A stretch of DNA of 64,000 nt from an uncultured delta proteobacterium (GTDB lineage Bacteria; Desulfobacterota; Binatia; UBA9968), in assembly GCA_963760795.1 (NCBI GenBank), contig CAVXEP010000032.1, positions 1-64,000 of the forward strand, given 5' to 3'. Below are positions 1 to 28,983 of the stretch, piece after piece. The notes under the pieces were generated by a model. It ran no database searches. It saw only the letters and a list, made by a program, of their open reading frames with translations, and had not been told where the DNA came from. A program made the translations under genes and the position numbers. Positions within the stretch are counted from its first letter, which is position 1, and every line of letters starts with the position of its first letter.

Positions 1-160
1 ATCGAAATGGTCTCCGCCTTGATAGAAAGGCGGCGTCGGGGCTGCGACCGTTCAGGTTCAAGGGGTTCAAAAGTTCAAGGGTCAGAACCATAGACAAGTC
101 CGACAACCTTGAACGCTTGAAACTTTGAACGTTTGAACGGATGTTGTTCCGGTGCGTCAC
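1..160 (-). CDS. 5' end of a TctC/Bug-family protein running off the window edge (indel-rich)
   Basis: Minus strand reads PFKRSKFQAFKVVGL / LTLELLNPLNL / PFYQG across shifting frames, like the leaders of the array paralogs. Confidence 0.55.
   Translation of the reverse strand, partial: MTHRNNIRSNVQSFKRSRLSDLSMVLTLELLNPLNLNGRSPDAAFLSRRRPFR
50..140. repeat. Family A hairpin (GTTCAA units / TTGAAC units)
   Basis: gttcaggttcaaggggttcaaaagttcaag ... ttgaacgcttgaaactttgaacgtttgaac. Confidence 0.85.
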
Positions 161-270
161 GGAATGACCGCGGACGTTAACGGGAGCCGACGGCGCGGTT
201 ATGAATATCGTGGAGTCGAGCCTAAGTGCAATGGATTTCTTACTCTTGCCTTTGTCTGTTGCCTTCTTCG

Positions 271-1326
271 TCACTTGATCACCTTCGTCGCTCGCATCAG
301 CACCACCGGTGGAATCGTCAGGCCGAGAGTCCTGGCGGTTTTTAGATTAATCAGCAGTTCGAACTTCGACGGCTGCTCGATGGGCAGGTCGGCGGGTTTG
401 GCGCCCTTCAATATTTTATCGACGAAATAGGCGACGCGCCGGTAGGGTTCGACGCGGTCGGGTCCGTAGGACATTAAGCCGCCGTTCTCGACAAATTCGC
501 CGCGGTCGAATATCGCCGGCAAGCGATATTTTGCCGCCAGCGCCGCGATCAGTTTTGGATTGGCAACGGCCAACGGGCTCGGCGTCACAGCGAGAGCGGC
601 GTTACCGGCCTTGGCCGCTTCTTTGAACTCGGCGTCGAGTTTGTCGACGCTGCTGACCGCCATGGAATGAAGTTGCAGACCCAGGTCTCGTGCCGCGAAA
701 AGACTTTCTTTCCACTCATGCGCCGAGCTAGGATCCTGGAAGTCCCACAGCACGGCGACGCGGGAGAGCTTGGGTATGGTTTGCTTGAGCAACTCCAGTC
801 GTTTGCCAGCCAGCTCCACCGCGACGGTGGTGACCCCGGTGATGTTTCCGCCAGGCCGCGCCAGGCTGTCGACCAGCCCATCCGCGACCGGATCGCTGGC
901 AACCATAAAAACGATCGGGGTCGTTTTGGTAGTTTTCTTCAAAGCCAGGGCTTCAGCCGTCGAGGACGCAATCAGCACGTCCACGTTGAGTCGGACCAAT
1001 TCTTCAGCGAGGGCGTGGAGCCGGTCGCGCTGATCTTCCGCGGATTGAGATTGCGCCGCGAAAGCTTTGTCCTTGCCCTCCCCAGAGCCGCGCGCATGGA
1101 GATCTCGCTGGACTCCCGGCAGCATAGAACCCGGACCGGAAGCTGAACCGGCCGATAGCCAGCCAATCTTCGGTACCTTTGCCGGCTGCTGCGCCTCGGT
1201 CATCCGCAGCCACCCCACGAGCAAGATAAGAATTGCAAGAAGCCCCGCCGATTTTGGATTTTGGATTTTAGATTTTGAATTGCTGGAAAAAGAATTCGGC
1301 CATCCTGTCCAAGATTGTTTTTTCAT
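271..1326 (-). CDS. ABC transporter substrate-binding protein (ABC_sub_bind / putative Trp-Tyr type)
   Basis: SLARPGGNITG, GGLMSYG, GAKPADLPIEQPSKFELLINLKTA motifs; ATG at 1326 preceded by GGGGAAGAG. Confidence 0.85.
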   Translation of the reverse strand: MKKQSWTGWPNSFSSNSKSKIQNPKSAGLLAILILLVGWLRMTEAQQPAKVPKIGWLSAGSASGPGSMLPGVQRDLHARGSGEGKDKAFAAQSQSAEDQRDRLHALAEELVRLNVDVLIASSTAEALALKKTTKTTPIVFMVASDPVADGLVDSLARPGGNITGVTTVAVELAGKRLELLKQTIPKLSRVAVLWDFQDPSSAHEWKESLFAARDLGLQLHSMAVSSVDKLDAEFKEAAKAGNAALAVTPSPLAVANPKLIAALAAKYRLPAIFDRGEFVENGGLMSYGPDRVEPYRRVAYFVDKILKGAKPADLPIEQPSKFELLINLKTARTLGLTIPPVVLMRATKVIK

Positions 1327-1371
1327 GCTCTCTTCCCCCAATCGAATATCCAAAATCGAAAATCTAAAATT
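1250..1371. repeat. Family B hairpin (ATTTTGG / AAAATCC heptamers) enclosing RBS and start codon
   Basis: gattttggattttggattttagattttg ... aatatccaaaatcgaaaatctaaaat. Confidence 0.85.
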
Positions 1372-2441
1372 ACTTAATCACCTTGGTCGCCCGCATGAGC
1401 ACGATCGGCGGAATCGTCAGGCCGAGTGTCTTGGCGGTTTTGAGATTGATCACCAGCTCGAACTTCATCGGCTGCTCGACGGGAATGTCGGCAGGCTTGG
1501 TTCCTTTCAGGATCTTGTCGACGAAAACAGCGGCTCGTCTGAAGGCTTCGTCCAGGTCGGTTCCGTAGGACATCAGGCCACCATTCTCGACAACAGTTTG
1601 CCGAGCGTAAATCGCCGGCAGCCGATATTTTTTCGCCAGTTCGACGGTCTATTTTGATTAGCAGAGCCCAACGGGCTCGACATCCAGACGAGAGCACCGC
1701 TACGCGCCTTAGTTGCTTCCTTGAACGCAGCCTCATATTTGTCGGCGCTGCTTACTTCCATGGAATGAAGTTGCAAGCCTAGTTCTCTTGCCGGCAGTTG
1801 GCTTTCTTTCCAACTTTGCGCGGAGCTTGGATCCTGAGGATTCCACAGCACCGCAACGCGGGAGAGTTTGGGAATGGTTTCCTTGAGCAACTCAAGTCGT
1901 TTGCCGGCCAACACCGACCCAATGGTGGTAAACCCCGTGATGTTTCCGCCGGGCCGCGCGCAGGCTATCGACCAGCCCCGCCGCAATCGGGATCAGTAAC
2001 GTCTATAAAAACGATGGGGATAGTCTTGGTAGCGTTCTTGACGGCTACGGCAGCGGGCGTATTGGGCGCGATGATCACGTCAACTTTAAGACGGACCAGC
2101 TCGTCGGCCAGAGCCGGGAGTCGGTCGAGCTTACCCTCAGCGTATCGATACTCGAAGGCTATGTTCTTCCCCTCGACATAGCCGAGTTTACTAAATTCTC
2201 GCTGGAACGACTCGATCACGAAAGCCGCGGACGCGGGACGGACTGCGAGCCAGCCAATCTTAGGTATCTTTGCTTGCTGCTGCGCATCGGCGAGGGCGCC
2301 GCACAGCACGAATGCGACACCGAGAGCGACAACCCCCAACCATTTTGGATTTTCGTCTGCGGGGCCGCTTTTGGTCCGCGGGGCCGCTTTTAGATTGTCG
2401 GAACTAGAATCCGGCTCTCGTATCCAAGATCTTTTGTTCAT
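1370..2441 (-). CDS. ABC_sub_bind substrate-binding protein, frameshifted near 1575-1640 and 1965-1985
   Basis: ORFs 1965-2441, 1573-1986 and 1370-1573 join into one family member; indels may be assembly errors. Confidence 0.8.
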
Positions 2442-2496
2442 GCTCTTTTCACCAACCGCAAATCCAAAAGCAGCCCCGCGGATGAAAATCTAAAAT
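2342..2496. repeat. Family B hairpin with GTCCGCGGGGCCGC inserts
   Basis: attttggattttcgtctgcggggccgcttttggtccgcggggccgcttttagatt ... aatccaaaagcagccccgcggatgaaaatctaaaat. Confidence 0.8.
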
Positions 2497-2499
2497 ATG

Positions 2500-3626
2500 T
2501 TAGTTCCCCAACACCCACTTCATCCGCTCGATAACTTCTTTCGGTTGGACGATCACTTCCCGCGCCAGCGATTCAAGCTCGGTACCGGTCGACGGGTCGA
2601 CGTCCCAGCCGCGTTTGGCGGCATCGGCGAGCAGGTCCGGGTCCTTCATCGTCTTGGTATAAGCGTCGCGGAGGATTTTTGTCTGCTCGGCGGACAGGCG
2701 CGGCGGGGCGGCGATGGGGCGGCCGAGGGTGGCGGCGGTGAGGATGACTTTAGCCAGCCGTCTGCCGGCGTCCGGAGTCTTGTATTGCTGCATCAATTCG
2801 TTCAGCGTCGGTGTCTCCTTCAGTCGGTCGTCGCGTTTGGCGGCGGTCTGGACGACGGCGCGGACGAAGCCGGATTTGTGCCAGCGCTTGTAGGGCTCGC
2901 GGCCGAAGTAAGTGCCGCTCAAGGGCGACCAGCAAACCACTTCGTTGCGTTCGACGGCGAGGTCGATTTCCGCGCCACCGGGATAGCCGCTGATGACGGT
3001 GGTCTTGATGCCGAGGGTTTCTTCGAGCACGCGCGGCACGTACAGACCGCTATTGCCGGTGCCGGTATTGCCGCATTTCGGCGGTTCCTTGGCATTGCGC
3101 AAGTCGTCGATGGTTTTGAACGGCGCGTCGGTCCGGATGAAGTGGATGAGGTCATTTTTTTCCGGCGAGCCGATCCAAGTGAATTTCGCCCAATCGAATT
3201 TAACTTCCGGCCGCGCCACCAATTGATCGAAATAGAGCGCCGGGTTGAAACCGCCGATGGTCAAGCCGTCGGGCTTGGCAATGCCGTATAAATAATTCGC
3301 GGCAACCACCCCGCCGGCGCCGACCATATTCTGAACTATAACCGTCGGATGGCCTGGTAGATGTTTACCGATATGCTGCGCCATCAAGCGCGCCCACTGA
3401 TCGTAACCGCCGCCGCTCGATGAACCGACGATCACCCGCAGAGTTTTACCCTGATAGGTATTTGCTTGCGCGAATACTCGTTCAAGGTTCAAAGGGTTCA
3501 AAAGTTCAAGGGCTGAAAAGAGCAGAGTCCGAGAACCTTGAGCCTTTGAACTGTTGCCTTCGATAAACTCAGGCCCTGAGTCCGCCGAGGGGAACGCTTG
3601 AGCGAATCTTGAAATCCAACGGTCAT
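2500..3626 (-). CDS. TctC/Bug-family substrate-binding protein (likely start 3626, 1-nt indel near 3525)
   Basis: GGGYDQWAR, VQNMVGAGG, KPDGLTIG motifs; ATG 3626 has GTGAGG upstream and an N-terminus like the 4962 paralog. Confidence 0.8.
3480..3613. repeat. Family A hairpin with nested 36-nt palindrome at 3556-3591
   Basis: GTTCAA and TTGAAC arms interrupted by gccttcgataaactcaggccctgagtccgccgaggg. Confidence 0.8.
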
Positions 3627-3729
3627 GAATGGCCTCACACGCAGCGTATATCAGATTAGACTTGAGATTCTTTTCATTGAAGCTTGTCAGTTTAGTGCTG
3701 TCGGTTGCAAGTTGTCTGTGTGCGGGTTC

Positions 3730-3826
3730 CGCCATTCCGGCGCAGGCCGGAATCCAGGGGCGTTTGTGGTCTTTTTGCTAGTCTGCCGAAGTCGGACATA
3801 GACACCGGCCTGCGCCGGTGTGACGG
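3730..3826. repeat. CGTC-type REP doublet
   Basis: cgccattccggcgcaggccggaatccag ... gacaccggcctgcgccggtgtgacg; relatives at 6092 and 52442. Confidence 0.85.
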
Positions 3827-3876
3827 ATTTTGCAGAGTTAATACTTGTGCGCTATCGTCCACTCGCGGCCTAGACA

Positions 3877-4959
3877 TTAGTTCCCCAACACCCACTTCAT
3901 CCGCTCGATCACTTCTTTGGGTTGGTTCATGACATCCTTCGCCAGCGCTTCAAGCTCGGCGCCGGTGTGGGGATCGACATCCCACGCGCGCTTGGCGGCT
4001 TCGCTGCGGAGCTCGGGATCTTGCATCGATTTCGCGTAGGCGTCGCGAAGAATTTTTAATTGTTCGGCCGGCAGGCGCGGTGGGCCGCCGATGGGGCGGC
4101 CGAGGTTGGCGGCGGTTAACACGACTTTGGCGAGCCGGCGGCTGGCCTCAGGCGTCTTATACTGCTGCATCAGTTCGGTGAGCGTCGGTACATCCTTCAG
4201 CCGTTCGTCGCGCTTGTTGCCGGTCTGGACGACGACGCGTACGAATCCCGCCCTGTGCCAGCGCTTGTAGGGCTCCCGGCCGAAGTAGGTGGCGATCAGC
4301 GGCGTCCAGCAGATTATTTCGTTGCGTTCGACGGCGAGGTCGATTTCTGAACCGCCCTGATAGCCGGTGACCTGGGTGGTTTTAATGCCCAGGGTGTCTT
4401 CGAGCAGCCGGGGAAAATAATGGGCGGTGGTGCCGCCGCCGGTGCTGCCGCATTTAGCCGGCTCCTTGGCGTTGCGCAGGTCGTCGATGGTTTTGTAGGG
4501 CGAGTCGGCACGGATGTAATGCAGCGCGTCGTTTTTCTCCGGCGAACCGATCCAGCTGAACTTGGTCCAATCGAACTTGCTCTCCGGCTTGCCAACCAGT
4601 TGTTCGAAATAGAGCGCTGGATTGAACGCACCGATGGTCAGGCCGTCAGGTTTGGCGAGTCCGTAGATAAAATTCCCGGCGACCAGGCCGCCGGCGCCGG
4701 GCAGATTTTGCACGATCACGGTTGGATGGCCTGGGATATGTTTGCCGATATGCAGCGCCAGCAACCGCGCCCAAAGGTCATAGCCGCCGCCGGACGCTGA
4801 GCCGACGACAATCCTAAGCGTCTTACCTTGATAATAGTTCGCTTGCGCGAACAAGAGTTCAAGGGTCAAGGGGCTCAAGAGTTCAAGGGTCAGAAAAAGC
4901 AATCCAAAGAAAATCCGATTGAACCATTGAACTTTTGAACCCTTGAACGGCCTTGGCAT
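3877..4959 (-). CDS. TctC/Bug-family substrate-binding protein
   Basis: GGGYDLWAR, QNLPGAGG, KPDGLT; leader overlaps family A repeat at 4856-4950. Confidence 0.88.
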   Translation of the reverse strand: MPRPFKGSKVQWFNRIFFGLLFLTLELLSPLTLELLFAQANYYQGKTLRIVVGSASGGGYDLWARLLALHIGKHIPGHPTVIVQNLPGAGGLVAGNFIYGLAKPDGLTIGAFNPALYFEQLVGKPESKFDWTKFSWIGSPEKNDALHYIRADSPYKTIDDLRNAKEPAKCGSTGGGTTAHYFPRLLEDTLGIKTTQVTGYQGGSEIDLAVERNEIICWTPLIATYFGREPYKRWHRAGFVRVVVQTGNKRDERLKDVPTLTELMQQYKTPEASRRLAKVVLTAANLGRPIGGPPRLPAEQLKILRDAYAKSMQDPELRSEAAKRAWDVDPHTGAELEALAKDVMNQPKEVIERMKWVLGN

Positions 4960-4961
4960 TT

Positions 4962-6041
4962 TTACTCCCGCCCAAGCACCCACTTCATGCGCTCGATGAC
5001 TTCCTTGGGCTGGGTGATGACTTCCTTCGATAACGCTTGCAGCTCTTCACCCTTGGTCGCATCGACTTCCCAACTTTGTTTAGCCGCCTCGGCGAGCAGG
5101 TCGGGATCGGCGATGGCTTTCGCATAGGCATCGCGCAGGATCTTCACGCGGTCCGGCGGAACGCCCGGGGCGGCGCCGATGGGCCGGCCTAAGGTGGCGG
5201 CGGTGAGAATCACTTTGGCGAGACGGCGGGCCGGCTCGGGGGATTTATACTGCTGCATCAATTCGTTCAACGTCGGCGAGTCTTTCAAGCGCGGGTCGCG
5301 CTTGGCGCCGGTCTGGACCATGACACGGACGTACCCGGACTTATGCCAGCGCCGGTAGGGCTCGCGGCCAAAATAGGTGGCCAAGAGCGGCGACCAGCAA
5401 AACACTTCGCCGCGCTCGATGGCGAGTTCGATATCGCCGGCGCCGGGATAACCGCTGACGATTTGGGTCTTGATGCCGAGGGTTTCTTCGAGCAGACGGG
5501 GAATGTAATGGCCGGTGCTGCCGGTGCCGGTGCTGCCGCATTTTTGCGGTTCTTTGGCATTGCGCAGATCGTCGATGGTTTTGAAGGCCGTGTCGGCGCG
5601 AATATAGTGGACGATGTCGTTTTTCTCCGGCGAACCGATCCAGTTGAATTTGGCCCAATCGAATTTAACTTCCGAGCGCCCGACCAGTTGATCGAAATAA
5701 AGCGCCGGGTTGACCGCGCCGAGGGTCAGGCCGTCGGGCTTGGCGACGCCGTAAACGTAGTTGGCGCCGATGATATTGCCCGCGCCCGGCATGTTCTGCA
5801 CGACGATGGTCGGGTTGCCGGGAATATATTTGACGAGGTAACGCGCCGTCAGCCGCGCCCACAAATCGTAGCCGCCGGCGGTGGTGGACGCGACTACCAT
5901 GGTGATGGTTTTGCCTGTATAAAAATTCGCTTGCGCGAATGCTTGTTCAAGGTTCAAGGGGTTCGAGAGTTCAATGACGGAGAAGATCAGGAGTCCGAAA
6001 ACCTTTGAGCGTTTGAACGAGTCTAGAAAATCACGGGTCAT
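4962..6041 (-). CDS. TctC/Bug-family substrate-binding protein
   Basis: Same motifs; leader overlaps family A repeat at 5945-6019. Confidence 0.88.
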   Translation of the reverse strand: MTRDFLDSFKRSKVFGLLIFSVIELSNPLNLEQAFAQANFYTGKTITMVVASTTAGGYDLWARLTARYLVKYIPGNPTIVVQNMPGAGNIIGANYVYGVAKPDGLTLGAVNPALYFDQLVGRSEVKFDWAKFNWIGSPEKNDIVHYIRADTAFKTIDDLRNAKEPQKCGSTGTGSTGHYIPRLLEETLGIKTQIVSGYPGAGDIELAIERGEVFCWSPLLATYFGREPYRRWHKSGYVRVMVQTGAKRDPRLKDSPTLNELMQQYKSPEPARRLAKVILTAATLGRPIGAAPGVPPDRVKILRDAYAKAIADPDLLAEAAKQSWEVDATKGEELQALSKEVITQPKEVIERMKWVLGRE

Positions 6042-6091
6042 AAATGTCCTCGCACTTAGCGCAAATCGGATTAAAACAACAATTTCCTATT

Positions 6092-6188
6092 CCGTCATTC
6101 CGGCGCAGGCCGGAATCCAGGTGCGGCGGGGTCTTTTCGCGGTTCTGCTGAAACCAGAGATGGACACCGGCCTTCGCCGGTGTGACGG
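6092..6188. repeat. CGTC-type REP doublet
   Basis: ccgtcattccggcgcaggccggaatccag ... tggacaccggccttcgccggtgtgacgg. Confidence 0.88.
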
Positions 6189-6224
6189 ACTTTCTCATTT
6201 TTGATGTCGCTGGCAGCCTGGTGA

Positions 6225-7298
6225 CTAGTTTCCCAGTACCCATTTCATTCTTTCGATGACTTCCTTCGGCTGGGTCATGACTTCCTTTGAAAGTTTTTCC
6301 ATCTCCTCGCCGGTGAGCGGGTCGATGTCCCAGCGTTGGCGTTTGGTCTCGGCAATGAGCTCGGGGTCTTTCAAGGTCTTTTGATAGGCGTCGCGCAGCA
6401 GTTTCAAGCGGTCGGGCGGAATTCCCGGCGTGACTGCGATGGGGCGGCCCAAGGTCGCGGCCACTAGAATCACCCGCGTCAGGCGCTTGCCGGCGTCGGG
6501 AGTTTTGTACTGATCCATCAGTTCATAAATGGTTGGCACGTCGGCCAGGCGCGGCTCGCGCTTGGTGCCGAATTGCACGACGACCCGCAGGTAGTTTTTT
6601 TTCTGCCAACTGATGTAGGGCTCGCGGCCAAAGTAGGTCGCCACCAGCGGCGACCAGCAGTGCACTTCGCCGCGTTCGACCGCCAAATCGATTTCGGAGC
6701 CGCCGGGATAGCCGGCGACGACAGTGTGTTTCGTGCCTAGGACTTCGTCGAGTAGGCGGGGAATATAAAATCCAGTCGTGCCGGTGCCGGAGCTGCCGCA
6801 ACGCGGCGGCTCTTTCGCCTTGCGGATATCGTCGATGGATTTGTAGGGCGAGTCGGCGCGCATGTAGTGGATGATGTCGTTTTGCTCCGGCGAGCCGATC
6901 CAGGGAATCTTGGCGAAATCGAACTGCACTTCTTTGCGCCCGACCAGCTGGTCGAAGTAAATCGCCGGCAGTAGCGCGCCTAGGGTCAGACCGTCGGGCT
7001 TGGCGATGTTGTATAAATAATTGGTCGCGACGATGGACGCCGCGCCGGGCATGTTCTGCACGAGAATTGTCGGATTACCCGGAATGTATTTGCCGTAGTA
7101 GCGCGCTAACACCCGCGCCCACAGATCGTAGCCGCCGCCGGTGGAGGAACCGATGACGATGCGGATCGTCTTGCCCTGATAAAAATTCGCTTGCGCGAAT
7201 GCCCGTTCAAGGTTCAAAGGGTTCAAAAGTTCAAGGGTCAGAAAGAATCCGAAAACCTTGAACGCTTGAACCTTTGAACTTTTGAACGTCATTGCCAT
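6225..7298 (-). CDS. TctC/Bug-family substrate-binding protein
   Basis: Same motifs; leader overlaps family A repeat at 7205-7288. Confidence 0.88.
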   Translation of the reverse strand: MAMTFKSSKVQAFKVFGFFLTLELLNPLNLERAFAQANFYQGKTIRIVIGSSTGGGYDLWARVLARYYGKYIPGNPTILVQNMPGAASIVATNYLYNIAKPDGLTLGALLPAIYFDQLVGRKEVQFDFAKIPWIGSPEQNDIIHYMRADSPYKSIDDIRKAKEPPRCGSSGTGTTGFYIPRLLDEVLGTKHTVVAGYPGGSEIDLAVERGEVHCWSPLVATYFGREPYISWQKKNYLRVVVQFGTKREPRLADVPTIYELMDQYKTPDAGKRLTRVILVAATLGRPIAVTPGIPPDRLKLLRDAYQKTLKDPELIAETKRQRWDIDPLTGEEMEKLSKEVMTQPKEVIERMKWVLGN

Positions 7299-7305
7299 CC
7301 CTTCG

Positions 7306-8343
7306 TTACATGCCGATCATCTTTTTTACCTTCTCGATGATGTCCGGCGTCGCGGTCATGACCTCTTTGGCCAAAGAGTCGAGCTCTTCGCCGGTTGCCG
7401 GATCGATGTCGAGTCTGCGCTTTTCCGCCTCCGCCAAAAAAGCCGGGTCACTGACAGTCTTGTTGAAAGCATCGCGAATAATCTTGACCCGGTCGGCGGG
7501 AACGCCTGGAGGGAAGACGATCGGACGGCCGAATTCGTCGGCGGCCAGCACTACTTTGGTGAGTCGCCGGACGTTTTCAGACGTCTTGTACTTGTCCATC
7601 AATTCATTGAACAGCGGCACGTCTTTCAGGCGCGGATCGCGTCTGCTGCCGGTTTGATAAAGCACGCGAACGAAATTTTTCTTGCGCCAGGTGATAAACG
7701 GTTCGCGGGCGAAGAAGGCGTTGATCGTAAAGGCCCGGCACATCACTTCGCCGCGCTCCACGGCCAAGTCAATATCCGAGCCGGCGACATAACCTGAGAC
7801 AACTTCGAACTTGGTGCCGATAGCGTCTTCTAGCAGTTTCGGCATGTAATAGGCGGATGATGTGACGCCCGTGGCGCCGCATTTCGGCGGAGTCGCTGCG
7901 GTACGGACATCTTCGATGGTTTTATACGGGGTATCGGCGCGCATATACATGTGACTGTTGGAGCTCACCGTGCTGCCGATCCAGTTGAACTTGCTCCAGT
8001 CGAATTTGGCTTCGGGCCGTTTGGCGAGCTGCTCGAAGTAAAGCGCGGGATAAATCGCGCCGAGGGTCAGGCCGTCAGGTTTGGCGACATTGTAAACCTG
8101 ATTGGTGCCGATCAGCCCCGCCGCGCCGGCGACGTTTTGAATGATGATGTTCGGGGTTCCCGGAATGTGTTTGGGCATGAATTCCGCGACCAGGCGTGGG
8201 TAAAGGTCGTAGACGTCGCCGGCCTTGGCGCCGACGATGATCTGGATCGTCTTGCCTTGATAGAATGGCGTCTGCGCGTGCAGGTCAAGCCGTGCGACGA
8301 ATAGGACGGCGAGGATCGCTAGGACGAATGCGAGTCTTTTCAT
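7306..8343 (-). CDS. TctC/Bug-family substrate-binding protein (conventional signal peptide)
   Basis: MKRLAFVLAILAV...HAQ; YDLYPR, KPDGLT. Confidence 0.88.
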   Translation of the reverse strand: MKRLAFVLAILAVLFVARLDLHAQTPFYQGKTIQIIVGAKAGDVYDLYPRLVAEFMPKHIPGTPNIIIQNVAGAAGLIGTNQVYNVAKPDGLTLGAIYPALYFEQLAKRPEAKFDWSKFNWIGSTVSSNSHMYMRADTPYKTIEDVRTAATPPKCGATGVTSSAYYMPKLLEDAIGTKFEVVSGYVAGSDIDLAVERGEVMCRAFTINAFFAREPFITWRKKNFVRVLYQTGSRRDPRLKDVPLFNELMDKYKTSENVRRLTKVVLAADEFGRPIVFPPGVPADRVKIIRDAFNKTVSDPAFLAEAEKRRLDIDPATGEELDSLAKEVMTATPDIIEKVKKMIGM

Positions 8344-8376
8344 GTGGCTTCTCCTTTGATCGTTGGCTTGGTGCTT

Positions 8377-9427
8377 TTATGTTCCCAATAATTTCTTCAT
8401 GCGTTCGATGACGTCCGGCGGTTGCGCCATGATCTCTTTGCCGAGTTTTTCCAGATCCTCGCCGGAGACTGGATCGAGATCGAGTTTTTTCTTGTTGGCG
8501 TCATCCAGGAGCTCCGGATCGCTCATGGTTTTCATGAAAGCTTCGCGAAGAAGTTTCACGCGGTCCGCCGGAATCCCGGGAGTGCCGATGATCGGCCGGC
8601 CGATCTCGTTGGCGGCCAAGATCACCGCGCGTCAGACGGCGCGCCGAGTCAGACGTCTTATGCTGGACCATGAGTTCTTCCAGAGTCGGCACATCGGGTA
8701 TTTTGCTATCGCGTTTCTTGCCGGTTTGCACGATCACCCGGACAAAGCCTTTTTTGCGCCAGGTGTGAAACGGCTCGCGGGCAAAGAAGGCGGCGATGGT
8801 GAAGGTGCGGCACTGCACTTCGCCGCGCTCCACCGCCAGGTCGACATCGGTGCCGGAGTTGTAACCGGTAACGATGGTGAATTTCGCGCCGATAGTTTCT
8901 TCCAAGAGCTTAGGAAAGTAATAGGCCGAAGACGCGGTGCCTTCGGCGCCGCATTTGGGCGGCACCGCGGCCTTGCGGATGTCTTCGATGGTTTTATACG
9001 GCGTGTCGCTGCGCATGTAGAGCAAATGGTGCGACACCGTGGTGTTGCCGATCCAGGTAAATTTTTGCCAGTCGAATTGGACTTCCTTGCGCCCGACCAG
9101 TTGATCGAAATAGAGCGCCGGTTGGATCGAGCCGATGGTCAGGCCATCGGGTTTGGCGACTGTGTAGATGTAGTTGGCCGCCACCATGGAAGCCACCCCC
9201 GGCATGTTTTGCACGATGATATTGGGATTGCCGGGAATATGCTTGGGGAGAAATTGGGCGACCATGCGGGCGTAGAGATCGTACACGCTTCCTGCCGGCG
9301 TGCCGGCGACCAGCCTGATGGTTTTGCCCTGATAGAAGGGAGTTTGGGCGTGGAGCGGAGCGCGCCACAAGAAGAGCACTGAGAGGACGGATGCGGCTAC
9401 TAAAACAGATCTCGTTTTCACGAACAT
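8377..9427 (-). CDS. TctC/Bug-family protein, frameshift near 8630
   Basis: ORFs 8501-9427 and 8377-8625 join into a full-length paralog. Confidence 0.8.
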
Positions 9428-9463
9428 GAAGTCTCCTTTGATCGATAGTTATTTGCGCTGTTG

Positions 9464-10488
9464 TCAGTCGCCCAAGAGCTTACGCATGCGCGCCACGACG
9501 TCCGGGGGCGTAGTCATGACGTCTTTTGCCAGGGTTTCCATTTCATCCCATTTCGTCGGATCGATTTCGAGACGGCGCTTTTCCGCTTCGGCAAGGAACG
9601 CCGGATCAGCGAGCGTCTTATCGAAGCCATCGCGAAGGATTTTGATCCGATCCGCCGGCACTCCCGGAGGGGCGACGATGGGGCGGCCCAAATCCCCGGA
9701 GGCCAGGATCACTTTCGCCAAGGTCCGTCCGGTCGCATTGGTTTTGTACTTATCCATCAACTCATAAATCGTCGGCGCATCCTTGACCCGAGCATCGCGT
9801 TGGCTGCCGGTTTGTATCAACACGTTGGTGAAATTCCGTTTGCGCCAGGAGATAAACGGCTCGCGGGCGTAATAGGCGGTAATCGTGAAGGCCCGGCACT
9901 GGAGCTCGCCGCGTTCCACCGCCAGATCGATATCCTGTCCGGACACGTAGCCGGACACGATGTCAAACTTGGCGCTCAACACGTCCTCCAAAAGCTTGGG
10001 TATGTAGTACCCGGCGGACGCGATACCGGTGGAGCCGCACTTCGGCGCCGTGGCCGCCTTGCGGATGTCGTCCATCGACTTGTACGGCGTGTCGGCGCGC
10101 ATGTAGAGGAGTTGGTTCGATTTAACCGGACTGCCGAGCCACTGCCATTTAGCCCAATCGTATTTCACTTCCGGTCGCTTGATCAGCTGATCGAAATAGA
10201 GCGCGGATAGATTGCCGCGAGAGCCAGGCCGTCAGGTTTAGCGGTGTTGTAGACCTGGTTGGCGGCGATCAATGAGGCCGCGCCCGGCACGTTTTGAACA
10301 ATCATGTTTGGATTGCCAGGAATATGCTTCGTCATATACTCGGCAAGTAAACGCGGATAGAGATCGTAGACATCGCCGGCTTTGGTGCCGACGGCGATGG
10401 TGATGGTTTTGCCTTGATAGAAGGGGGTTTGAGCGAGTGAAGTTGCGCTCCATCCGAGGCCTGACAATAAGACGAGAATCAGAATCAT
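9464..10488 (-). CDS. TctC/Bug-family protein, frameshift near 10205
   Basis: ORFs 10183-10653 (ATG 10488 with AAGGAG) and 9464-10168 join. Confidence 0.8.
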
Positions 10489-10573
10489 ACCGTTTCTCCT
10501 TACCGCCGAATTTTTTTTCGCAGCACATCCCCAAGGTTGATTCGTGACAACCTCGGCGATGTGTCGAAGTTGG

Positions 10574-11602
10574 CTATTTCCCGCCCAGTAGTTTCTCCAT
10601 GCGCTGCACGACGTCAGGCGTCGCGGCCATGACTTCCTTGGCCAGCGCTTCAAGCTCGCTGCCGGGAGCCGGGTCCATCTCCAAGCGCCGTTTTTCCGCG
10701 GTCGCTAGGAGCGCCGGATCGTTCACCGACTTGTCGAAAGCATCGCGCAAAATCTTCAGCCGGTCCGCCGGAACCCCGGGAGCGACGACGAGCGGACGGC
10801 CAAACTCGCCGGCGGCCAGGACGACTTTAGCCAAGCTTCTGCCGCCGGCATTGGTCTTGTACTTATCCATTAATTCATAAATCGTCGGCGCGTCTTTGAG
10901 GCGGGGATCGCGCTTGATGCCGCTCTGCATCAGACTGTTGACGAAACCGCGCTTGCGCCAGGAAATGAACGGTTCGCGCGCGAAATAAGCGGTGATCGTG
11001 AAGGCGCGGCAGACGACCTCGCCGCGTTCGACAGCGATATCGACATCTTGGCCGGACTGATAGCCCAATACGATATCGAATTTCGTGCCGAGGGTTTCTT
11101 CCATCAGTTTCGGTAAGTAATAGCCGGTCGACGTGATGCCGTTGGAGCCGCACTTCGGCGCCGCCGATGCCGAACGGATATCGTCCATGGATTTGTACGG
11201 CGCGTCCGAGCGCATGTAGAGAACATGGTTCGACGTTACCGGATTGCCAACAAAACCGAACTTGGTCCAGTCGAATTTAGCTTCGGGTTTTTTCGTCAGC
11301 TGCTCGAAATAGAGCGCCGGGTAGATGGCGCCGATGGTCAAACCGTCCGGTTTGCTGACGTTATAAACTTGATTGGCGGCGATCATCGAGGCGGCGCCGG
11401 GAACATTCTGAATGATGATATTCGGGTTGCCGGGAATATATTTGGGCATGAACTCGGCAAGCATGCGGGGATATAAATCGTAGGCGTCGCCGGCCTTGGT
11501 GCCGACGACAATGGTGATGGTTTTCCCTTGATAGAACGGGGTCTGGGCATGGGCCGCTTGGCCCAGTAAGACAACGGATAAGAGCGCCAGTAATCTCAAC
11601 AT
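10574..11602 (-). CDS. TctC/Bug-family substrate-binding protein
   Basis: Signal peptide plus family motifs; close paralog of the 9464 gene. Confidence 0.88.
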   Translation of the reverse strand: MLRLLALLSVVLLGQAAHAQTPFYQGKTITIVVGTKAGDAYDLYPRMLAEFMPKYIPGNPNIIIQNVPGAASMIAANQVYNVSKPDGLTIGAIYPALYFEQLTKKPEAKFDWTKFGFVGNPVTSNHVLYMRSDAPYKSMDDIRSASAAPKCGSNGITSTGYYLPKLMEETLGTKFDIVLGYQSGQDVDIAVERGEVVCRAFTITAYFAREPFISWRKRGFVNSLMQSGIKRDPRLKDAPTIYELMDKYKTNAGGRSLAKVVLAAGEFGRPLVVAPGVPADRLKILRDAFDKSVNDPALLATAEKRRLEMDPAPGSELEALAKEVMAATPDVVQRMEKLLGGK

Positions 11603-11664
11603 ATAATCACAACCTCCTGAAGCATTTGGTGCACTGAAATTATCATCGATAGGGTTTTATTCAA

Positions 11665-12086
11665 CTAGTTGCCGAGCACTTTCTTCACCCGGGCGATCAC
11701 TTCCGGCGTTGTTCAAGAATGCGTTTGGCGAGTTTTTCGAGATTCTCACCGCTCTCGGGGTCGACGTCCATTCTTTGTTTGTGCGCTTCAGCGAGCAATT
11801 CCGGATCTTTTAAAGATTGAAGGCGTGGCGCAATGCCCGCACATGGTCCGGCGCGACGCGACGATGGACCCGGCGCCCGGCATGTTTTGCACGACGAAGC
11901 TCGGATGGCCGGGAATGTACTTGGGCATGTAGCGCGATAGTAACCTGGCCCAACGGTCGTAAAAGCCGCCGGTGGTGAAACCAACGACGGCTTTGATCTG
12001 TTTCCCTGATAGTAAGGCGATTGCGCCGGCAGGTGGGAAGTCCACGCGCCAACCAGAAAGAGCGCCAGGATGACGGCGGCTCTCAT
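11665..12086 (-). pseudogene. Internally deleted TctC remnant
   Basis: N-terminal part (GGFYDRWAR...QNMPGAGS) is joined near 11850 to the C-terminal part (KDPELLAEA...VKKVLGN); about 600 bp missing relative to paralogs. Confidence 0.75.
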
Positions 12087-12143
12087 GGATACTCCATTTT
12101 ATTCGGCCTGCACTTGGACGGCGATGATAGGGTTGGCGATGTT

Positions 12144-13270
12144 TTATTCAAGAATTTTTTTGACGCGTTTGAGAACAGCGGGCGGTTGGTTCATGACTCG
12201 TTTGGCCAGCGCTTGCAGTTGTTCACCGGTGACCGGCTCCATATCCATACGCGCTTTCTTCGCCTCGGCGATGAGTTCGGCATTGTGCATAGATTTGACG
12301 TAAGCCTCGCGCAGCATATTCACCCGGTCGAGCGGCGTGCCCGGTCCGGCCAGCATCGGGCGGCCAAAGTCGCCGCCGCGCAAAATCACATCGGCGACCC
12401 TGCGGCTCTCATCGGCGGTGTTTTCTTTGTCGAAGATTTCGTACAGCGTCGGCACCTCGGCGACGCGGGCATCGCGCTTCTCCGAGGTTTGCACGATATG
12501 CTGATCGAAGCCCTTCTTGTGCCAACTATCGAAGGGCTCGCGGCCGAAGTGCGGCGCGATGGTCATGCCGCGGCATGCACTTCGCCCTTCTCCACGGCAA
12601 TGTCGATCTCGCTGCCGCCGGCATAACCGAGGATGGTGTTGATCTTGATCCCAAGGGTGTCTTCGAGAACTCTCGCGATCAAGTAGTCCGCGCCGGCGGT
12701 GCCGGTGGCGCCGCATTTAGCGGGCTCGGCGAGCTTTCTCATGTCCTGGACTGATTTGAAGGGCGCGTCGGCGCGGGCGTAGAGAATGATGTCGCTTTTC
12801 TCCGGCGAGCCGATGAAATAGCCCTTAGTGATGTCGAAACGAACTTCTTTACGTCCGGCCAACTGATCGAGATAGACGCCGTAATTGGGCATGACCACAG
12901 TGAGCCCGTCGGCTTTGGCGACGCCGAAGACATGGTTCATTGCGATCATCGAGCCCGCGCCCGCCATGTTCTGAACGATGAAGCTGGGATTGCCCGGCAG
13001 GTAAAGCGGCATGAAGCGGGCGAGTAGGCGCGCCCAGCGATCGTAGAAACCGCCCGGCGTGAGGCCGACGATGATGCGGATGGTTTTGCCTTGATAAAAT
13101 GGCGTCTGTGCAGACGCCCGTTCAAGGTTCAAAGGGTTCAAAAGTTCAAGGGTCAGAATCAGAAACCCGAACAGAATCCGATTGAACCCTCGAACGCTTG
13201 AACCCTTGAACGGATTTTTCAGCGCATGAACTTTTGAACCATTGAACCGGGGTTTGAATTTATCAGTCAT
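12144..13270 (-). CDS. TctC/Bug-family protein, frameshift near 12580
   Basis: ORFs 12563-13270 and 12144-12716 join; leader overlaps family A repeat at 13120-13259. Confidence 0.8.
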
Positions 13271-13277
13271 AGGCGCC

Positions 13278-14368
13278 TCATTCCGACAACACTTTTTTAA
13301 CTCTCTCGGTCACTTCACGCGGTTGATTCAACAATTCCTTCATCAGCGCCTGGAGTTCTTCGCCGGGGTGTATTCCATATCCATTTGACTCTTTTTCGCT
13401 TCCTCGACGAGCCCCGGGTCGCGCATCGCGCTGGCATAGGCGGCGCGCATGATTTTGATGCGTTCGGGCGGATTGCCGGGGCCGGCGACCATGGGCCGGC
13501 CAAAATCGCCGCTCGCCAGAATCACCCGTGCGACACCGCGCATGACTTCGGGAGTTTTGAATTGATCCATCAGTTCGAACAGGGTCGGCGCGTCGCCCAT
13601 GCGCGGATCGCGCTTCGGGCCGCTCTGTAAGATATGTCGGTCGAAGCCGCGCTTATGCCAGCCGTCGAATGGTTCGCGGCCAAAGTGCGGCGGGATGTCC
13701 ATGCCGCGGCAAACGATCTCGCCACGTTCGACGGCGATGTCGATCTCGCTGCCGCCCTGGTAGCCGGTGACGGTGTTCATTTTGGCCTTGAATGCTTCGT
13801 CCATGATCCTGGCGAGCAGGTATCCGGTGCTCGCCGTCCCGGTGGAGCCGCACTTCGGCGGTTCCTTGGCGTTGATGATGTCGCCCAGGGTTTTGAACGG
13901 ACTGTCGGCTCGGAAGTAGAGCATGGTCGGAGCTTTTTCTTGAGTGCCGATGAATTCGAATTTTCTGACGTCGAACTTTACTTCACGCCGGCCAACCACT
14001 TGATCGAGATAGAGACTATTGATCGGCACCAGCAGCGTCAGGCCGTCGGCCTTGCTCAAGTTATAGACATAGTTGGCGGCGATCACCGAGCTTGCACCCG
14101 GCATGTTTTGCACGACAAAGGTGGGGTTGCCGGGGATGTATTTGGGCATATAGCGCGATAGTAACCTGGCCCAGCGGTCATAGAAGCCGCCCGGCGTGAA
14201 ACCGACGATGATGCGCACGGACTTGTCTTGATAAAAATTCGCTTGCGCGAATGTTGGTTCAAGGTTCAAAGGGTTTAACAGCGCAACGACGGAAAAGATT
14301 AGCGGTCCAACAACCTTGAACGTTTGAACATTTGAATGTTTGAACGGGTTTGTGAATTGGAATTTCAT
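13278..14368 (-). CDS. TctC/Bug-family protein, frameshift near 13360
   Basis: 341-aa ORF; C-terminus NQPREVTERVKKVLSE* lies in another frame; leader overlaps family A repeat at 14257-14349. Confidence 0.82.
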
Positions 14369-14375
14369 AATCGCC

Positions 14376-15435
14376 TCAATCCGTCAAAACTTTCTTGACC
14401 AGGTCGATCACCTCGCGCGGCTGGCTGATGATTTCAGTGATCTGTGCTTGAAGCTCTGTGCCGGCGGTATATTCCAAGTCCATCTGGCCCTTTTTCGCTT
14501 CCTCGATCAGGCCCGGGTCGCGCATCGCTCTGCCGTAAGCTTCGCGCAGCGCGTTGATCCGCTCCGGCGCTTACCCCCGGCCCCGCCATCATTGGCCGGC
14601 CCATTTCGCCGGCGGCCAGAATCACCCGGGTCAGACTGCGCATGATCGCCGGCGACTTGTATTGGTCCAGCAGTTCGAACAGCGTCGGCACCTCGGCCAA
14701 GCGCGCATCGCGCTTCGGCCCACCTTGAAAGATATGGCGGTCGAAGTTGCGCTTGTGCCAACCGTCGAAGGGCTCGCGGCCAAAGTGCGGCGGCACGTCC
14801 ATTTGCCGGCAAACCAGTTCGCCGCGCTCGACGGCCAGGTCGATTTCGCTGCCGCCCTGATAGCCGCTTATGCTGATGGTCTTGGCCTTGAATGCTTCGT
14901 TGAGCAGCTTCGACGTGGTATAGGCTGTGCTCGTCGTCCCGCTCGAGCCGCACTTGGGCGGCTCCTTGGCTTGAATGATGTCACCGAGCGACTTGATCGG
15001 GCTGTCGGCGCGAAAATACATCATCGTCGGGGTCTTTTCTTGGCTGCCGATATAGGCAAATTTGCGCAAATCGTACTTCACTTCGGGCCGGCCGACGAGC
15101 TGATCGAGGTGCAGGCTGTTGAGCGGCATGACCATTGTTAGTCCGTCGGGTTTGGCCAAGTGGTAAACATAGTTGGCCGCCACCACGGAGCCTGCGCCCG
15201 GCATGTTTTGCACGACGAAATTGGGATTGCCGGCAATGTACTTGGGAATGTAACGCGCCAGCAGCCGCGCCCAACGGTCGTAAAAGCCGCCGGGCGTTGC
15301 ACCGACGATGATGCGCACGGTCTTGCCGTTGTAGAAGCCGTCGATCTGGGCGCGCGCGCTATGGTTGCGAAGAAATTCACAGGCTGAGTCAGGCAAGTTA
15401 AAATCGATGATGACGTGGATTGTTCGGTGGATCAT
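14376..15435 (-). CDS. TctC/Bug-family protein, frameshifts near the C-terminus, leader garbled
   Basis: GGFYDRWAR, KPDGLT, PPHFGREPF; C-terminus VKKVLTD* in another frame. Confidence 0.78.
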
Positions 15436-15570
15436 TCATGGAGTAACCTCTCCGAACCGGCGGCGGATCAATATGGTCCCTCAGAAATACCGGACAAGAA
15501 CGGCGCCAGACAAACATGTTCGGCGCCGCGGGCGCGGCTGGTGAACGGCATGAGAACGAAATTCGGCCTG

Positions 15571-19755: not shown

Positions 19756-19832
19756 ATTTTGGATTTCCGTCCGCGGGGCCGCTTCCCGCTGAAACGGTTT
19801 GAACTGCTTGAACGTTTTGAACGGCTTGAACC
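19756..19832. repeat. Half copies of family B and family A repeats
   Basis: aattttggatttccgtccgcggggccgc; tttgaactgcttgaacgttttgaacggcttgaac. Confidence 0.7.
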
Positions 19833-27866: not shown

Positions 27867-27997
27867 ATTTTGGATTTTCGTCAGCGGGGCAGCTTTTGGA
27901 TTTTGGATTGGGAGACTAGGACATGACAAAGAAATTTCGGACTGGAATTCCGTGGCTTCGATCCGATAATCCAAAATCCAAAATCAAAAATCAAAAT
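27867..27997. repeat. Family B hairpin enclosing RBS and ATG 27923
   Basis: attttggattttcgtcagcggggcagcttttggattttggattg ... aatccaaaatccaaaatcaaaaatcaaaat. Confidence 0.85.
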
Positions 27998-28983
27998 GGT
28001 TGGGGCTTGTCACACTCGTTATCGCATTCGTAATCTGTGGGGTGGCGGCCGAGGCGCAGCAGCCGAAGAAAGTCTCTCGGTTAGGGTATCTATCAAATAC
28101 CGATGCAGCTACTGACTCCGCCCGCGCCGAGGGAATTCGGCTAGCTCTGCGCGAGCGTGGCTACATAGAAGGACAGAACATCGCCATCGAGTACCGATAT
28201 GCGGAGGGGAAGGTCGATCGGGCCCCTGAGCTTGCGGCGGAGCTGGTGCGTCTGAAGGTTGATATCATCGTGGTAGCGTCAGGGGACCAGTGGATCCGGG
28301 CGGCCAAGAATGCAACCAAGACGATTCCCATCGTTATGACGGGCCAAGGATCCGATCCTGTTAGGGCAGGCCATGTTGAAAGTCTTGCTCGTCCCGGCGG
28401 CAATGTCACCGGCCTCACAGCTCTTAACACAGAGCTAGGCGGGAAGCGGCTGGAGCTGCTCAAAGAAGCGGTACCCAAACTTTCCCGTGTCGCGGTTCTC
28501 TACGATCCGGCCATTCCGCAGAGTTTACACGAGGTGAAAGAGCTTCTCCCAGCCCACGCGCGTGCGCTAAAGTTGACTATTCAACCTTGGGAGATACGAG
28601 CGGTGGACGACTTCGAGAAGGTCTTTGCTGCGCTAAACAAGCAGCGCCCGGATGGACTCTACGTGATCACCGCGGGCGGGGTAATGCGTCCTAACCAAAA
28701 ACGAATCGTGGGCTTTGCGTTAAAGAGCCGGTTACCGTCAGTGTACATCAGCAGAGGGAATGTAGAGGCCGGTGGGCTCATGTTCTATCGGGCGGACGAA
28801 ACGGACAATTACCGGCGCGTTGCATATTTCGTGGACAGGATTCTGAAGGGCGCCAATCCTGCCGAACTGCCGGTGGAGCAGCCGATGAAGTTTGAGCTGG
28901 TGTTCAATCTTAAAACGGCGAAGCAGATTGGTCTGACTATTCCGCAGTCGTTGCTTTATCGGGCGGATAAAGTGATTAAATAA
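27923..28983 (+). CDS. ABC_sub_bind substrate-binding protein (1-nt indel near 27990; ORF track start 28000)
   Basis: MTKKFRTGIPWLRSDNPKSKIK parallels the leaders at 1326 and 2441; family motifs downstream. Confidence 0.85.

Follow-up and report, generated by a model that had tools for sequence, protein, structure and literature searches.

The window, by which we mean the full 64,000-nucleotide stretch analyzed, carries tandem TctC genes on its minus strand, several of which begin with an in-frame copy of a palindromic repeat (Table 1). All six window ORFs submitted to Pfam matched PF03401 above the gathering score (45 to 65 bits; cut-off, 27). An earlier note on this DNA had placed a GTTCAA/TTGAAC hairpin inside the 5' ends of seven TctC genes; all seven copies do precede mature domains on the minus strand, but only four leaders are fully intact (starts at 4959, 6041, 7298/7292, and 14368). 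In gene 2500-3735, a 1-nt frameshift in the loop places the 5' arm in a different frame, and no start codon was found near the leader remnant. The body of gene 12563-13270 continues in another frame (12144-12716). In the reference case, gene 6225-7298, the leader reads MAMTFKSSKVQAFKVFGFFLTLELLNPLNLERAFA↓QANFYQGKT (the arrow marks the predicted cleavage site) and consists of the 5' arm FKSSKVQAFK, the loop VFGFFLT, and the 3' arm LELLNPLNLE, followed by RAFA↓Q. The leader peptides quoted in the earlier note are exact when checked against this translation. An SD-like AAGGGA lies upstream of the ATG at 7292, and the stop of the neighboring paralog 7306-8343 falls 17 nt ahead of the hairpin.

Table 1. 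Positions of the repeat copies, the genes that carry them, and comparator features (window coordinates unless a contig is named)
Feature	Coordinates	Strand	Details
TctC gene copy	57-137	-	Hairpin leader; gene cut by contig start; frameshift at leader/mature junction
TctC gene (PF03401)	2500-3735	-	Leader remnant ~3469-3560; 3' arm 3480-3510
TctC gene	3877-4959	-	Leader 4846-4959, MPRPFKGSKVQWFNRIFFGLLFLTLELLSPLTLELLFA↓Q; hairpin 4881-4948
TctC gene	4962-6041	-	Leader 5934-6041, MTRDFLDSFKRSKVFGLLIFSVIELSNPLNLEQAFA↓Q; 3' arm 5945-5972 intact, 5' arm shortened
TctC gene, reference case	6225-7298	-	Leader 7194-7298; hairpin 7205-7289
Split TctC gene, N-terminal part	12563-13270	-	Leader 13109-13270 intact; hairpin 13120-13246, extra 5' arm units
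TctC gene, different subclade	13343-14368	-	Leader 14246-14368, MKFQFTNPFKHSNVQTFKVVGPLIFSVVALLNPLNLEPTFA↓Q; hairpin 14257-14344
Comparator TctC paralog, ordinary signal peptide	7306-8343	-	MKRLAFVLAILAVLFVARLDLHA↓QTPFYQGKT; neighbor of 6225-7298
Comparator TctC paralog, ordinary signal peptide	10574-11602	-	
Full intergenic hairpin	29945-30049		Between stop 29939 and ATG 30069
Single arm, 9-nt-period subfamily	19799-19832	+	ATG 19855 lies 24 nt downstream
Single GTTCAA arm	43547-43576	+	Directly after stop 43540; ATG 43634 ~55 nt downstream
9-nt-period subfamily, intergenic copies	62068-62243		
PF01797 (Y1-transposase) matches	C9:1600-1926; C25:43983-44156; C25:48409-48738		

The repeat comprises two arms, three to four tandem GTTCAAnn units on one side and three to four nnTTGAAC units on the other, with a loop between them that is bounded by TCGGA...TC(C/T)GA. 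Within the window, six GTTCAA...TTGAAC pairs were observed against 0.10 expected, a number reached in 0 of 100 shuffles, and inverted-repeat arms were located at 4881-4948, 7198-7293, 13120-13207, and 29945-30049. The earlier note had listed four intergenic hairpins: that near 29945 is a full hairpin, but the copies near 19799 and 43547 are single arms, and the copy at 62068, intergenic as stated, belongs to a subfamily with a 9-nt period. The genome-wide scan that it had called for retrieved ~160 loci in 6.58 Mb, the majority intergenic (164 arm loci and 41 strict hairpins by tally), with numerous single arms in unrelated contexts. The same family is also read in frame, through eight TctC leaders and the arms of one other gene. 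Seven of these leaders lie in the window and one elsewhere, so that the repeat leader occurs in 8/119 TctC-family ORFs and the other paralogs mostly carry ordinary signal peptides, as the note had it.

Several observations support translation of the hairpin. Both arms were present in the N termini of 83 of the 120 closest database homologs (70 to 94% identity), with the called Met two to eight residues before the 5' arm in 81 of these 83. Hairpins upstream of TctC mature starts in relatives, located by DNA alone at 13 further loci, were in frame and open over at least 36 codons in 45/52 cases, compared with 48 of the 222 orientation-frames (~22%) of non-leader copies; the frame is thus preserved, which the earlier note had proposed to check. 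That note had also named a true start downstream of the repeat as evidence against a translated leader. Of 21 leaders, 18 have an ATG situated 1 to 12 codons before the 5' arm. Candidate starts farther downstream are nearly all TTG triplets belonging to the repeat units, with the few others inside the leader; no such start would retain a complete signal peptide. Frameshifts within the leader or where it joins the mature part affected 7/52 copies in relatives and 2/7 in the window; these copies are pseudogenes, or else the shifts are indel errors of assemblies with few contigs. Contigs from relatives' RNA libraries span 7168-7299 contiguously with coding sequence, which is weak support given possible DNA carry-over.

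The encoded peptides resemble Sec signal peptides in most respects. The 5' arm specifies a positively charged n-region, FK(S/G)SK/RVQxFK/N. A hydrophobic core within the usual range (~7 to 15 residues) follows, with a best 8-residue Kyte-Doolittle mean of 2.93 (minimum, 2.39) across 24 repeat leaders and 3.11 across ordinary leaders (n = 63). Loops change fast, with a residue difference of 65% between pairs, yet keep their hydrophobicity. Loops of non-leader copies are not hydrophobic (mean, -0.55); a mean of at least 1.5 was found in only 3 of 48 open non-leader frames, one of which is the C21 TctC leader itself. The residue at -1 is Ala in 24/24 leaders, and that at -3 is Ala (14), Leu (3), Thr (3), Val (2), or Ser (2), in keeping with small, neutral residues at both positions. 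In alignments, the A-x-A↓Q junction coincides exactly with its counterpart in ordinary paralogs. The usual Sec c-region is short and polar, spanning about 3 to 7 residues. In the repeat leaders, by comparison, the hydrophobic window lies a median of 13.5 residues from the cleavage site (9 in ordinary leaders), and positions -14 to -4 contain ~2 acidic residues (0.32 in ordinary leaders); so long and acidic a c-region is atypical for SPase I substrates. Judged from these sequence features, the repeat leader would direct Sec-dependent export and be cleaved after A-x-A.

Comparison of orthologs, suggested in the earlier note as a check on leader presence or absence, revealed both leader types within one genus. 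Orthologs of gene 6225-7298 carry the repeat leader in six genomes (G002, G013, G022, G017, G024, and G016) and an ordinary or decayed signal peptide in five (G006, G021, G023, G007, and G012); mature parts are 83 to 93% identical, and 83 to 91% identical where a same-genus ortholog has an ordinary signal peptide. Across orthologs, the repeat leader is thus interchangeable with ordinary signal peptides at the sequence level. On a tree of 90 mature domains, leader state must change 12 times, with at least 8 changes on well-supported branches; loss, decay, and recombination are candidate histories. Recipients extend beyond TctC: one ABC_sub_bind (PF04392) protein, P0154, has the same leader, and at C4:196414 the n-region of a non-TctC protein is encoded by a single repeat arm. 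As a separate observation, PF04392 genes have their SD and ATG enclosed by hairpins of a second family, which also encode their n-region.

Constraint on the repeat also acts on the nucleotides. Synonymous differences were lower in the arms (5' arm, 0.135; 3' arm, 0.194) than in the mature part (0.446). Within the arms, GAA was used in 45/45 cases (mature part, 241/451), GTT in 21/22 (53/519), and TCA in 21/31 (16/303), with the choice between AAA and AAG free at lysine codons (24/26), where the third base is a spacer position. Leader hairpins had a mean minimum free energy (MFE) of -32.5 kcal/mol, compared with -23.5 kcal/mol for synonymous recodings, which agrees with the mRNA hairpin over the first codons that the earlier note had postulated. 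Because the hexamers are fixed at synonymous sites and the peptide could be encoded with a weaker hairpin, constraint is indicated on the peptide and on the nucleotides alike. Compensatory changes were looked for in the hairpin arms and none was found; since the hexamers are invariant, pairing is inseparable from motif conservation. Measured from the upstream TctC stop, the median distance to the hairpin is 34 nt (no more than 100 nt in 44/51 cases), and a stem of -30 to -46 kcal/mol begins no farther than ~12 nt from the start codon. Because structured mRNA in this region is known to lower initiation, such a stem should impede translation of the leader genes.

These nucleotide-level features raise the alternative that the hairpin is kept only for a role in nucleic acid, be it as an intercistronic mRNA stabilizer, a processing site, or a protein-binding hexamer array. 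Its translation would then be accidental and the leader poor or nonfunctional, with the paralogs weakly exported or being lost. The frozen hexamers, the filling of the spacer after the upstream stop, the atypical c-region, the frameshifted copies in relatives and in the window, and the many split TctC genes of the window array would all fit such a scenario. However, the mature domains in the ortholog group are under strong purifying selection (amino acid differences of 0.095 versus synonymous differences of 0.415), hydrophobic loops are confined to leader copies, Ala at -1 is invariant, and relatives' copies are mostly in frame. Moreover, the leader is kept across four genera, including in a genome (G006) from which the dispersed family is nearly gone (seven pattern matches) and which retains two intact leaders. 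We therefore regard an exclusively nucleic acid role as unlikely.

Alternatively, the leader could be translated and membrane targeting yet remain as an uncleaved signal anchor that tethers the binding protein, or be cleaved at another site. The long acidic segment between the hydrophobic core and A-x-A is compatible with this, as is the conservation of ELLNPLNLE, which as a peptide (amino acid difference of 0.17) exceeds that of the remaining leader. Much of the latter is explained by nucleotide constraint on the arms, however, and the alignment of the A-x-A↓Q junction with ordinary paralogs, together with the universal Ala at -1, makes an anchor quite improbable.

The distribution of the repeat bears on its origin. 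The dispersed family was found in 83/90 genomes of the bacterial family, representing all 23 genera; in a same-order sample outside the family, 2/16 genomes contained it, with one match each. The leader-specific arm, which has an 8-9-7 spacing, occurred in only 23/90 genomes from four genera, always within tandem ~1.1-kb arrays. The host is described as a soil-type bacterium, and the repeat is dispersed in its relatives too. Leaders and dispersed hairpins are built of identical hexamers and have common loop ends, namely TC[AG]GA (14/24 leaders and 17/36 non-leader hairpins) and TC[CT]GA (15/24 and 13/36), where ~0.016 is expected by chance per end. By sequence, the leader is thus homologous to the dispersed family. 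Reversed polarity, with the dispersed repeats descending from the TctC leader, or convergent likeness could draw on the restriction of the 8-9-7 spacing to TctC arrays (spacings of intergenic copies vary), but either is very hard to reconcile with a dispersed family in every genus and a leader arm in four, with the common loop-end motif, and with ~160 loci that include many single arms in unrelated contexts.

Taken together, the in-frame copies, upstream ATGs, leader-only hydrophobic loops, invariant Ala at -1, and ortholog swaps favor the exaptation proposed in the earlier note. We consider it probable that a lineage-specific intergenic palindrome was captured into the downstream TctC frame and is now translated as an N-terminal export signal. 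Capture would have taken place in tandem TctC arrays, with an ATG two to eight codons upstream of the 5' arm opening the frame. The 5' arm would then supply the Lys/Arg-rich n-region (FKSSKVQAFK), the loop a hydrophobic core of 8 to 13 residues, and the 3' arm (L)ELLNPLNLE, after which four or five non-repeat codons would provide the A-x-A↓Q signal-peptidase site common to ordinary paralogs. A retained mRNA role may keep the hexamers frozen: the hairpin fills the spacer after the upstream stop in the manner of an intercistronic REP-type hairpin and would also gate initiation of the downstream gene. More tentatively, the hairpin may be dual use, selected both as an RNA structure that protects the upstream message in tandem TctC operons and gates the next gene's initiation and as the Sec signal peptide of that next gene, with lineage repeats of this bacterial family serving as a recurrent source of binding-protein leaders.

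Signal peptides are usually thought to arise via slow N-terminal drift. Here, a selfish or structural intergenic repeat seems to have provided an entire, working-looking leader at a single step, and this leader apparently went on to propagate among the many paralogs of a large family. Orthologs that differ only in leader type offer a natural experiment on the minimal sequence for a Sec signal, and peptide and nucleic acid structure impose overlapping constraints within the same 90 nt. In the annotation of metagenome assemblies, genes with repeat leaders could easily be called wrongly through repeat masking or start-codon heuristics, and "low-complexity" N-terminal repeats of binding proteins may be real leaders.

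Among known systems, the REP/BIME elements of the E. coli mal operon are extragenic palindromes that act as intercistronic mRNA hairpins. The TctC repeat is similarly abundant and short, forms a stable stem, and closely follows a stop codon in arrays that resemble operons; unlike the single imperfect palindrome of REP/BIME, its arms are tandem hexamer units. To our knowledge, classical REPs are not translated. None of the three matches to PF01797 (Y1 or RAYT transposase) in the genome lies near a listed repeat locus. Rickettsia palindromic elements and other protein-coding palindromic repeats are dispersed, occurring both intergenically and in frame within ORFs, where they are translated (Ogata et al. 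2000; Claverie and Ogata 2003). The TctC repeat shares this dual placement but forms an N-terminal targeting signal with coding content under selection; the hosts are unrelated, and the comparison is one of kind. PARCELs, palindromic amphipathic repeat coding elements that form intragenic tandem repeat domains in surface proteins of Mollicutes and other microbes, are likewise palindromic and protein coding but are neither dispersed intergenic hairpins nor signal peptides (PMC2996958).

The earlier note knew of no repeat that supplies a signal peptide. There is an in silico precedent, however, in the enterobacterial intergenic repeat unit RU-2, which lies inside Yersinia pestis YPO1552, homologs of which in other genera have unrelated signal sequences (Delihas 2007, PMC2759123). 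As described there, the case is a prediction for a single small ORF of unknown function, presented without multi-genome conservation, a frame-preservation test, or a loop-selection test. Compared with that account, in which only part of a repeat is used, the TctC hairpin in its entirety covers the n- and h-regions plus part of the c-region; it is found on many paralogs of a well-defined protein family, across several genera, with nucleotide-level constraint retained.

TctC/Bug solute-binding-protein genes form a minus-strand array in the first 15.5 kb of the window, and PF03401 matches confirmed the family for all six window ORFs submitted. The earlier note placed a GTTCAA/TTGAAC hairpin inside the 5' end of seven TctC genes, and this is a confirmed observation: seven window copies precede mature domains. 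The genome under study (6.58 Mb, 57% G+C, 35 contigs; the window covers the opening 64 kb of contig C32) has 119 TctC-family ORFs, some of them fragments, a very large expansion. Eight of these carry the repeat before the mature domain, seven in the window and one on contig C21; the remainder have ordinary leaders ending in A-x-A before Q, in keeping with the note's description of the other paralogs. In the reference leader gene, 6225-7298, the coding strand opens ATG GCA ATG ACG and continues with the 5' arm (FKSSKVQAFK), the loop (VFGFFLT), the 3' arm (LELLNPLNLE), and RAFA-QANFYQGKT (hyphen, cleavage site), while the adjacent paralog reads MKRLAFVLAILAVLFVARLDLHA-QTPFYQGKT. Four of the seven window leaders are fully intact, one is intact on a gene with a split body, and two are frameshifted. 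Many TctC genes across window 1-15500 look disrupted (see table), representing either pseudogenes or assembly indel errors. Among relatives, up to 9-10 leader-bearing paralogs stand in tandem in G017, G019, and G013.

The GTTCAA...TTGAAC pattern has 6 matches in the window versus 0.10 expected, with inverted arms of 18-33 nt. The element consists of 3-4 tandem GTTCAAnn units, a loop of 16-70 nt (often starting TC(A/G)GA and ending TC(C/T)GA), and 3-4 nnTTGAAC units. A strict scan found 41 full hairpins genome-wide; an arm HMM (E ≤1) found 164 arm loci (33 hairpins, 130 single arms, and 1 other), which are mostly intergenic. A true ATG lies a few codons downstream of many arms. A subfamily with a 9-nt period (TTGAACGGCTTGAACGAT...) has all units in one frame and recurs at many loci in relatives; a Shine-Dalgarno (SD) sequence and ATG often stand directly downstream of its single arms, and GTTCAAGG contains an SD-like AAGG. 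With regard to a RAYT link, the Y1-transposase (PF01797) genes of this genome adjoin none of the listed arm loci.

Coordinates of repeat-associated and related features (window coordinates unless a contig of the genome is named)
Position	Strand	Feature	Observation
1-137		TctC gene	Disrupted-looking; leader at 57-137 frameshifted at junction
271-1353		ABC_sub_bind (PF04392) gene	Second hairpin family at start; SD and ATG in loop
1245-1345	-	Second hairpin family	
2500-3735		TctC gene	Disrupted-looking; leader frameshifted inside loop
6225-7298	-	TctC gene	Reference repeat leader
7306-8343	-	TctC gene	Ordinary leader
8501-9427		TctC gene	Disrupted-looking; out-of-frame tail
9464-10168, 10183-10653		TctC gene	Split
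11697-12086		TctC gene	Disrupted-looking; fragment
12144-12716, 12563-13270		TctC gene	Split
14434-15435		TctC gene	N- and C-termini odd versus relatives
19799-19832		Repeat arm	9-nt-period subfamily; ATG a few codons downstream
27894-27990	+	Second hairpin family	
27923-28983			Second hairpin family at start; SD and ATG in loop
29007-29103	+	Second hairpin family	
43547-43576		Repeat arm	ATG a few codons downstream
62068-62243		Repeat	9-nt-period subfamily
C4:196000-196520	-	Non-TctC binding-protein-like gene	Leader MFCSRFKVQSSRFAARLVVAASLFISAGTTWA-QD; n-region is a single 4-unit GTTCAA arm
C9:1600-1926		Y1-transposase (PF01797) match	
C16:185534		Non-leader copy	Hydrophobic-looking loop; treated as chance
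C25:43983-44156		Y1-transposase (PF01797) match	
C25:48409-48738		Y1-transposase (PF01797) match	
C28:86888		Non-leader copy	Hydrophobic-looking loop; treated as chance; no gene downstream
C32:462331		1-mismatch match to leader arm	Rejected as leader; intergenic degenerate arm

The 120 best homologs of 6225-7298 share 70-94% identity with it; 83 have both arms at the N terminus, 4 only the 3' arm, 1 only the 5' arm, and 28 neither, and the other 4 records are truncated. The called Met lies 2-8 residues ahead of the 5' arm in 81/83 both-arm homologs. Close homologs are labeled as metagenome-assembled Binatota/Binatia or Deltaproteobacteria, with stray other labels. A gene-caller-independent set comprised 88 TctC mature starts, located by HMM in 13 further loci; these loci come from 12 genomes in four genera. 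At the DNA level, both arms were found ≤160 nt upstream of the mature start in 52/88, and 45 of these 52 hairpins keep the mature frame open for ≥36 codons, versus 48/222 open orientation-frames in the 37 non-leader hairpins of the genome under study. Frame is thus preserved in relatives. Because one frame of TTGAAC contains TGA, an open frame needs particular spacing; an 8-9-7 spacing of the 3' arm, giving ELLNPLNLE, is common to all leaders. The seven exceptions read 'TLN...', a frameshift at the leader/mature junction, and come mainly from few-contig assemblies; these copies may be indel errors or pseudogenes.

An in-frame ATG lies 1-12 codons upstream of the 5' arm in 18 of the 21 leaders in which that arm is recognizable. 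Downstream start candidates are almost all TTG of repeat units, with the few others inside the leader, and from none of them would a complete signal peptide remain. Contigs of relatives (85-99% alike) from soil, rhizosphere, and sediment RNA libraries (four runs) cover 7168-7299, and one spans 7206-7299 plus 51 nt of unlike upstream sequence. Since contigs cannot show transcript starts or ends and DNA carry-over is possible, this coverage is weak evidence for expression.

Selection on the peptide is visible in the loop: when the 24 leader-bearing genes are compared in pairs, 65% of loop residue comparisons show a difference, yet the core remains hydrophobic. Its best 8-residue hydropathy is 2.93 in repeat leaders versus 3.11 in ordinary ones (n = 63). 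By contrast, loop hydropathy averages -0.55 over the open frames of non-leader copies, and only 3/48 reach ≥1.5, one of which is the C21 leader itself. Ala occupies position -1 in 24/24 leaders. In the ortholog group of 6225-7298, mature-part differences are 0.095 for amino acids versus 0.415 synonymous; by this measure, leader-bearing genes are not decaying. Repeat leaders are atypical in one respect, a long, acidic stretch from core to cleavage site (median of 13.5 residues versus 9 in ordinary leaders; 2.04 acidic residues versus 0.32).

The nucleotides are constrained as well. Synonymous differences, counted at codons with identical amino acids in 276 pairs, were 0.135 for the 5' arm and 0.194 for the 3' arm; the loop (0.396), c-region (0.368), and mature part (0.446) gave higher values. 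Codon choice within the hexamers is fixed (arms versus mature part: GAA for Glu, 45/45 versus 241/451; GTT for Val, 21/22 versus 53/519; CAA for Gln, 21/22 versus 126/244; TCA for Ser, 21/31 versus 16/303; CTT plus TTG for Leu, 71/87 versus 178/636), while the spacer position is free (AAA:AAG for Lys, with the third base as spacer, 24:26 versus 275:239). Homogenization by a genome-wide repeat pool might also freeze the hexamers; this explanation is weakened by G006, a relative with 7 pattern matches genome-wide and two intact leaders, in which the leader is independent of a large pool.

An mRNA hairpin over the first codons, also proposed in the earlier note, agrees with computed folding: leaders average -32.5 kcal/mol versus -23.5 for synonymous recodings, and the hairpin at window 7205 gives -43.4 (z, -4.8). 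Across leader copies, the distance from the upstream TctC stop to the hairpin has a median of 34 nt (≤100 nt in 44/51); thus, the repeat sits where an intercistronic hairpin would. In an RNAalifold analysis of a codon-based alignment of 19 leaders, every paired column falls in an invariant hexamer, with variation in a single column pair; because the stem columns lack variation for covariation, pairing and the hexamer motif itself are inseparable as the selected trait. So strong a stem so near the start codon should hinder initiation; one guess is that regulation or translational coupling may account for this tension.

Orthologs differ in leader type. Within one genus, the syntenic ortholog of 6225-7298 has the repeat leader in G002, G013, G022, G017, G024, and G016 and an ordinary or decayed leader in G006, G021, G023, G007, and G012, on mature parts that are 83-93% identical. 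Remnants in relatives (FLNLERASAQ, LELSNLGTLEHAAAQ, ELWSASLERAFAQ, and LSNPLGVERPALAQ) appear to trace intermediates of a repeat leader decaying to an ordinary-looking signal peptide. A tree of 90 mature domains requires 12 changes of leader state, and well-supported branches carry at least 8 of these; the decayed remnants show many of the 12 to be losses. Seven independent exaptations were rejected, as every leader has the same 3' arm spacing. This single spacing type, together with the 12 changes, makes one origin more likely, with later duplication, recombination of 5' ends inside arrays, and decay on repeated occasions. Searching the protein database with the leader alone retrieved 117 proteins, all TctC or frameshifted TctC except P0154 (metagenome, 338 amino acids), an ABC_sub_bind (PF04392) protein with an identical leader up to RAFAQ, followed by AKIAKIGFL. 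Its sequence suggests exchange of the leader between families of binding proteins. Taken together, the preserved frame, hydrophobic loops, invariant Ala, and ortholog swaps support the note's central proposal, exaptation of a dispersed repeat as a predicted export leader.

The tandem-hexamer pattern occurs in 83/90 genomes of the bacterial family (79/86 without four unpublished genomes) and in 23/23 genera, against 0-1 for a reversed-pattern control. Outside the family, only 2/16 genomes of a same-order sample have it, with one match each. The leader-specific arm is found in 23/90 genomes (genera g1, 17/31; g12, 3/5; g18, 2/2; g27, 1/8), always on one strand at ∼1.1-kb spacing, and thus marks tandem TctC arrays. 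The dispersed family therefore has a wider range than its leader form, which is what descent of the leader from the repeat would predict.

Another repeat also stands at gene starts. A second hairpin family (GATTTTGGATTTTGG ... CCAAAATCCAAAATC; 42 arm-regex matches genome-wide) lies at two window genes, where its 3' arm forms a Lys-rich n-region (SKSKIQNPKS, SDNPKSKIKNQ) with a hydrophobic core directly after. A TctC on contig C7 (leader ...SDNPKSKSGPADPKAVPRTKIGGIITIAV...) may also use this family.

Protein-coding palindromic repeats are established in Rickettsia and others, and PMC2996958 cites and describes them. At the level of literature listings, no report of a TctC repeat leader was found for Binatota and TTT. 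The earlier note knew of no repeat supplying a signal peptide; this did not hold, as PMC2759123 describes a predicted repeat-derived signal peptide, the only case found in the literature searched for such peptides. The kind of event is therefore already in print. New here are a hairpin that maps in full onto the n-region, h-region, and part of the c-region; its place on a defined protein family, where many paralogs across several genera carry it; numbers for frame preservation and loop selection; orthologs in which repeat and ordinary leaders are interchangeable; and simultaneous constraint on peptide and nucleotides.
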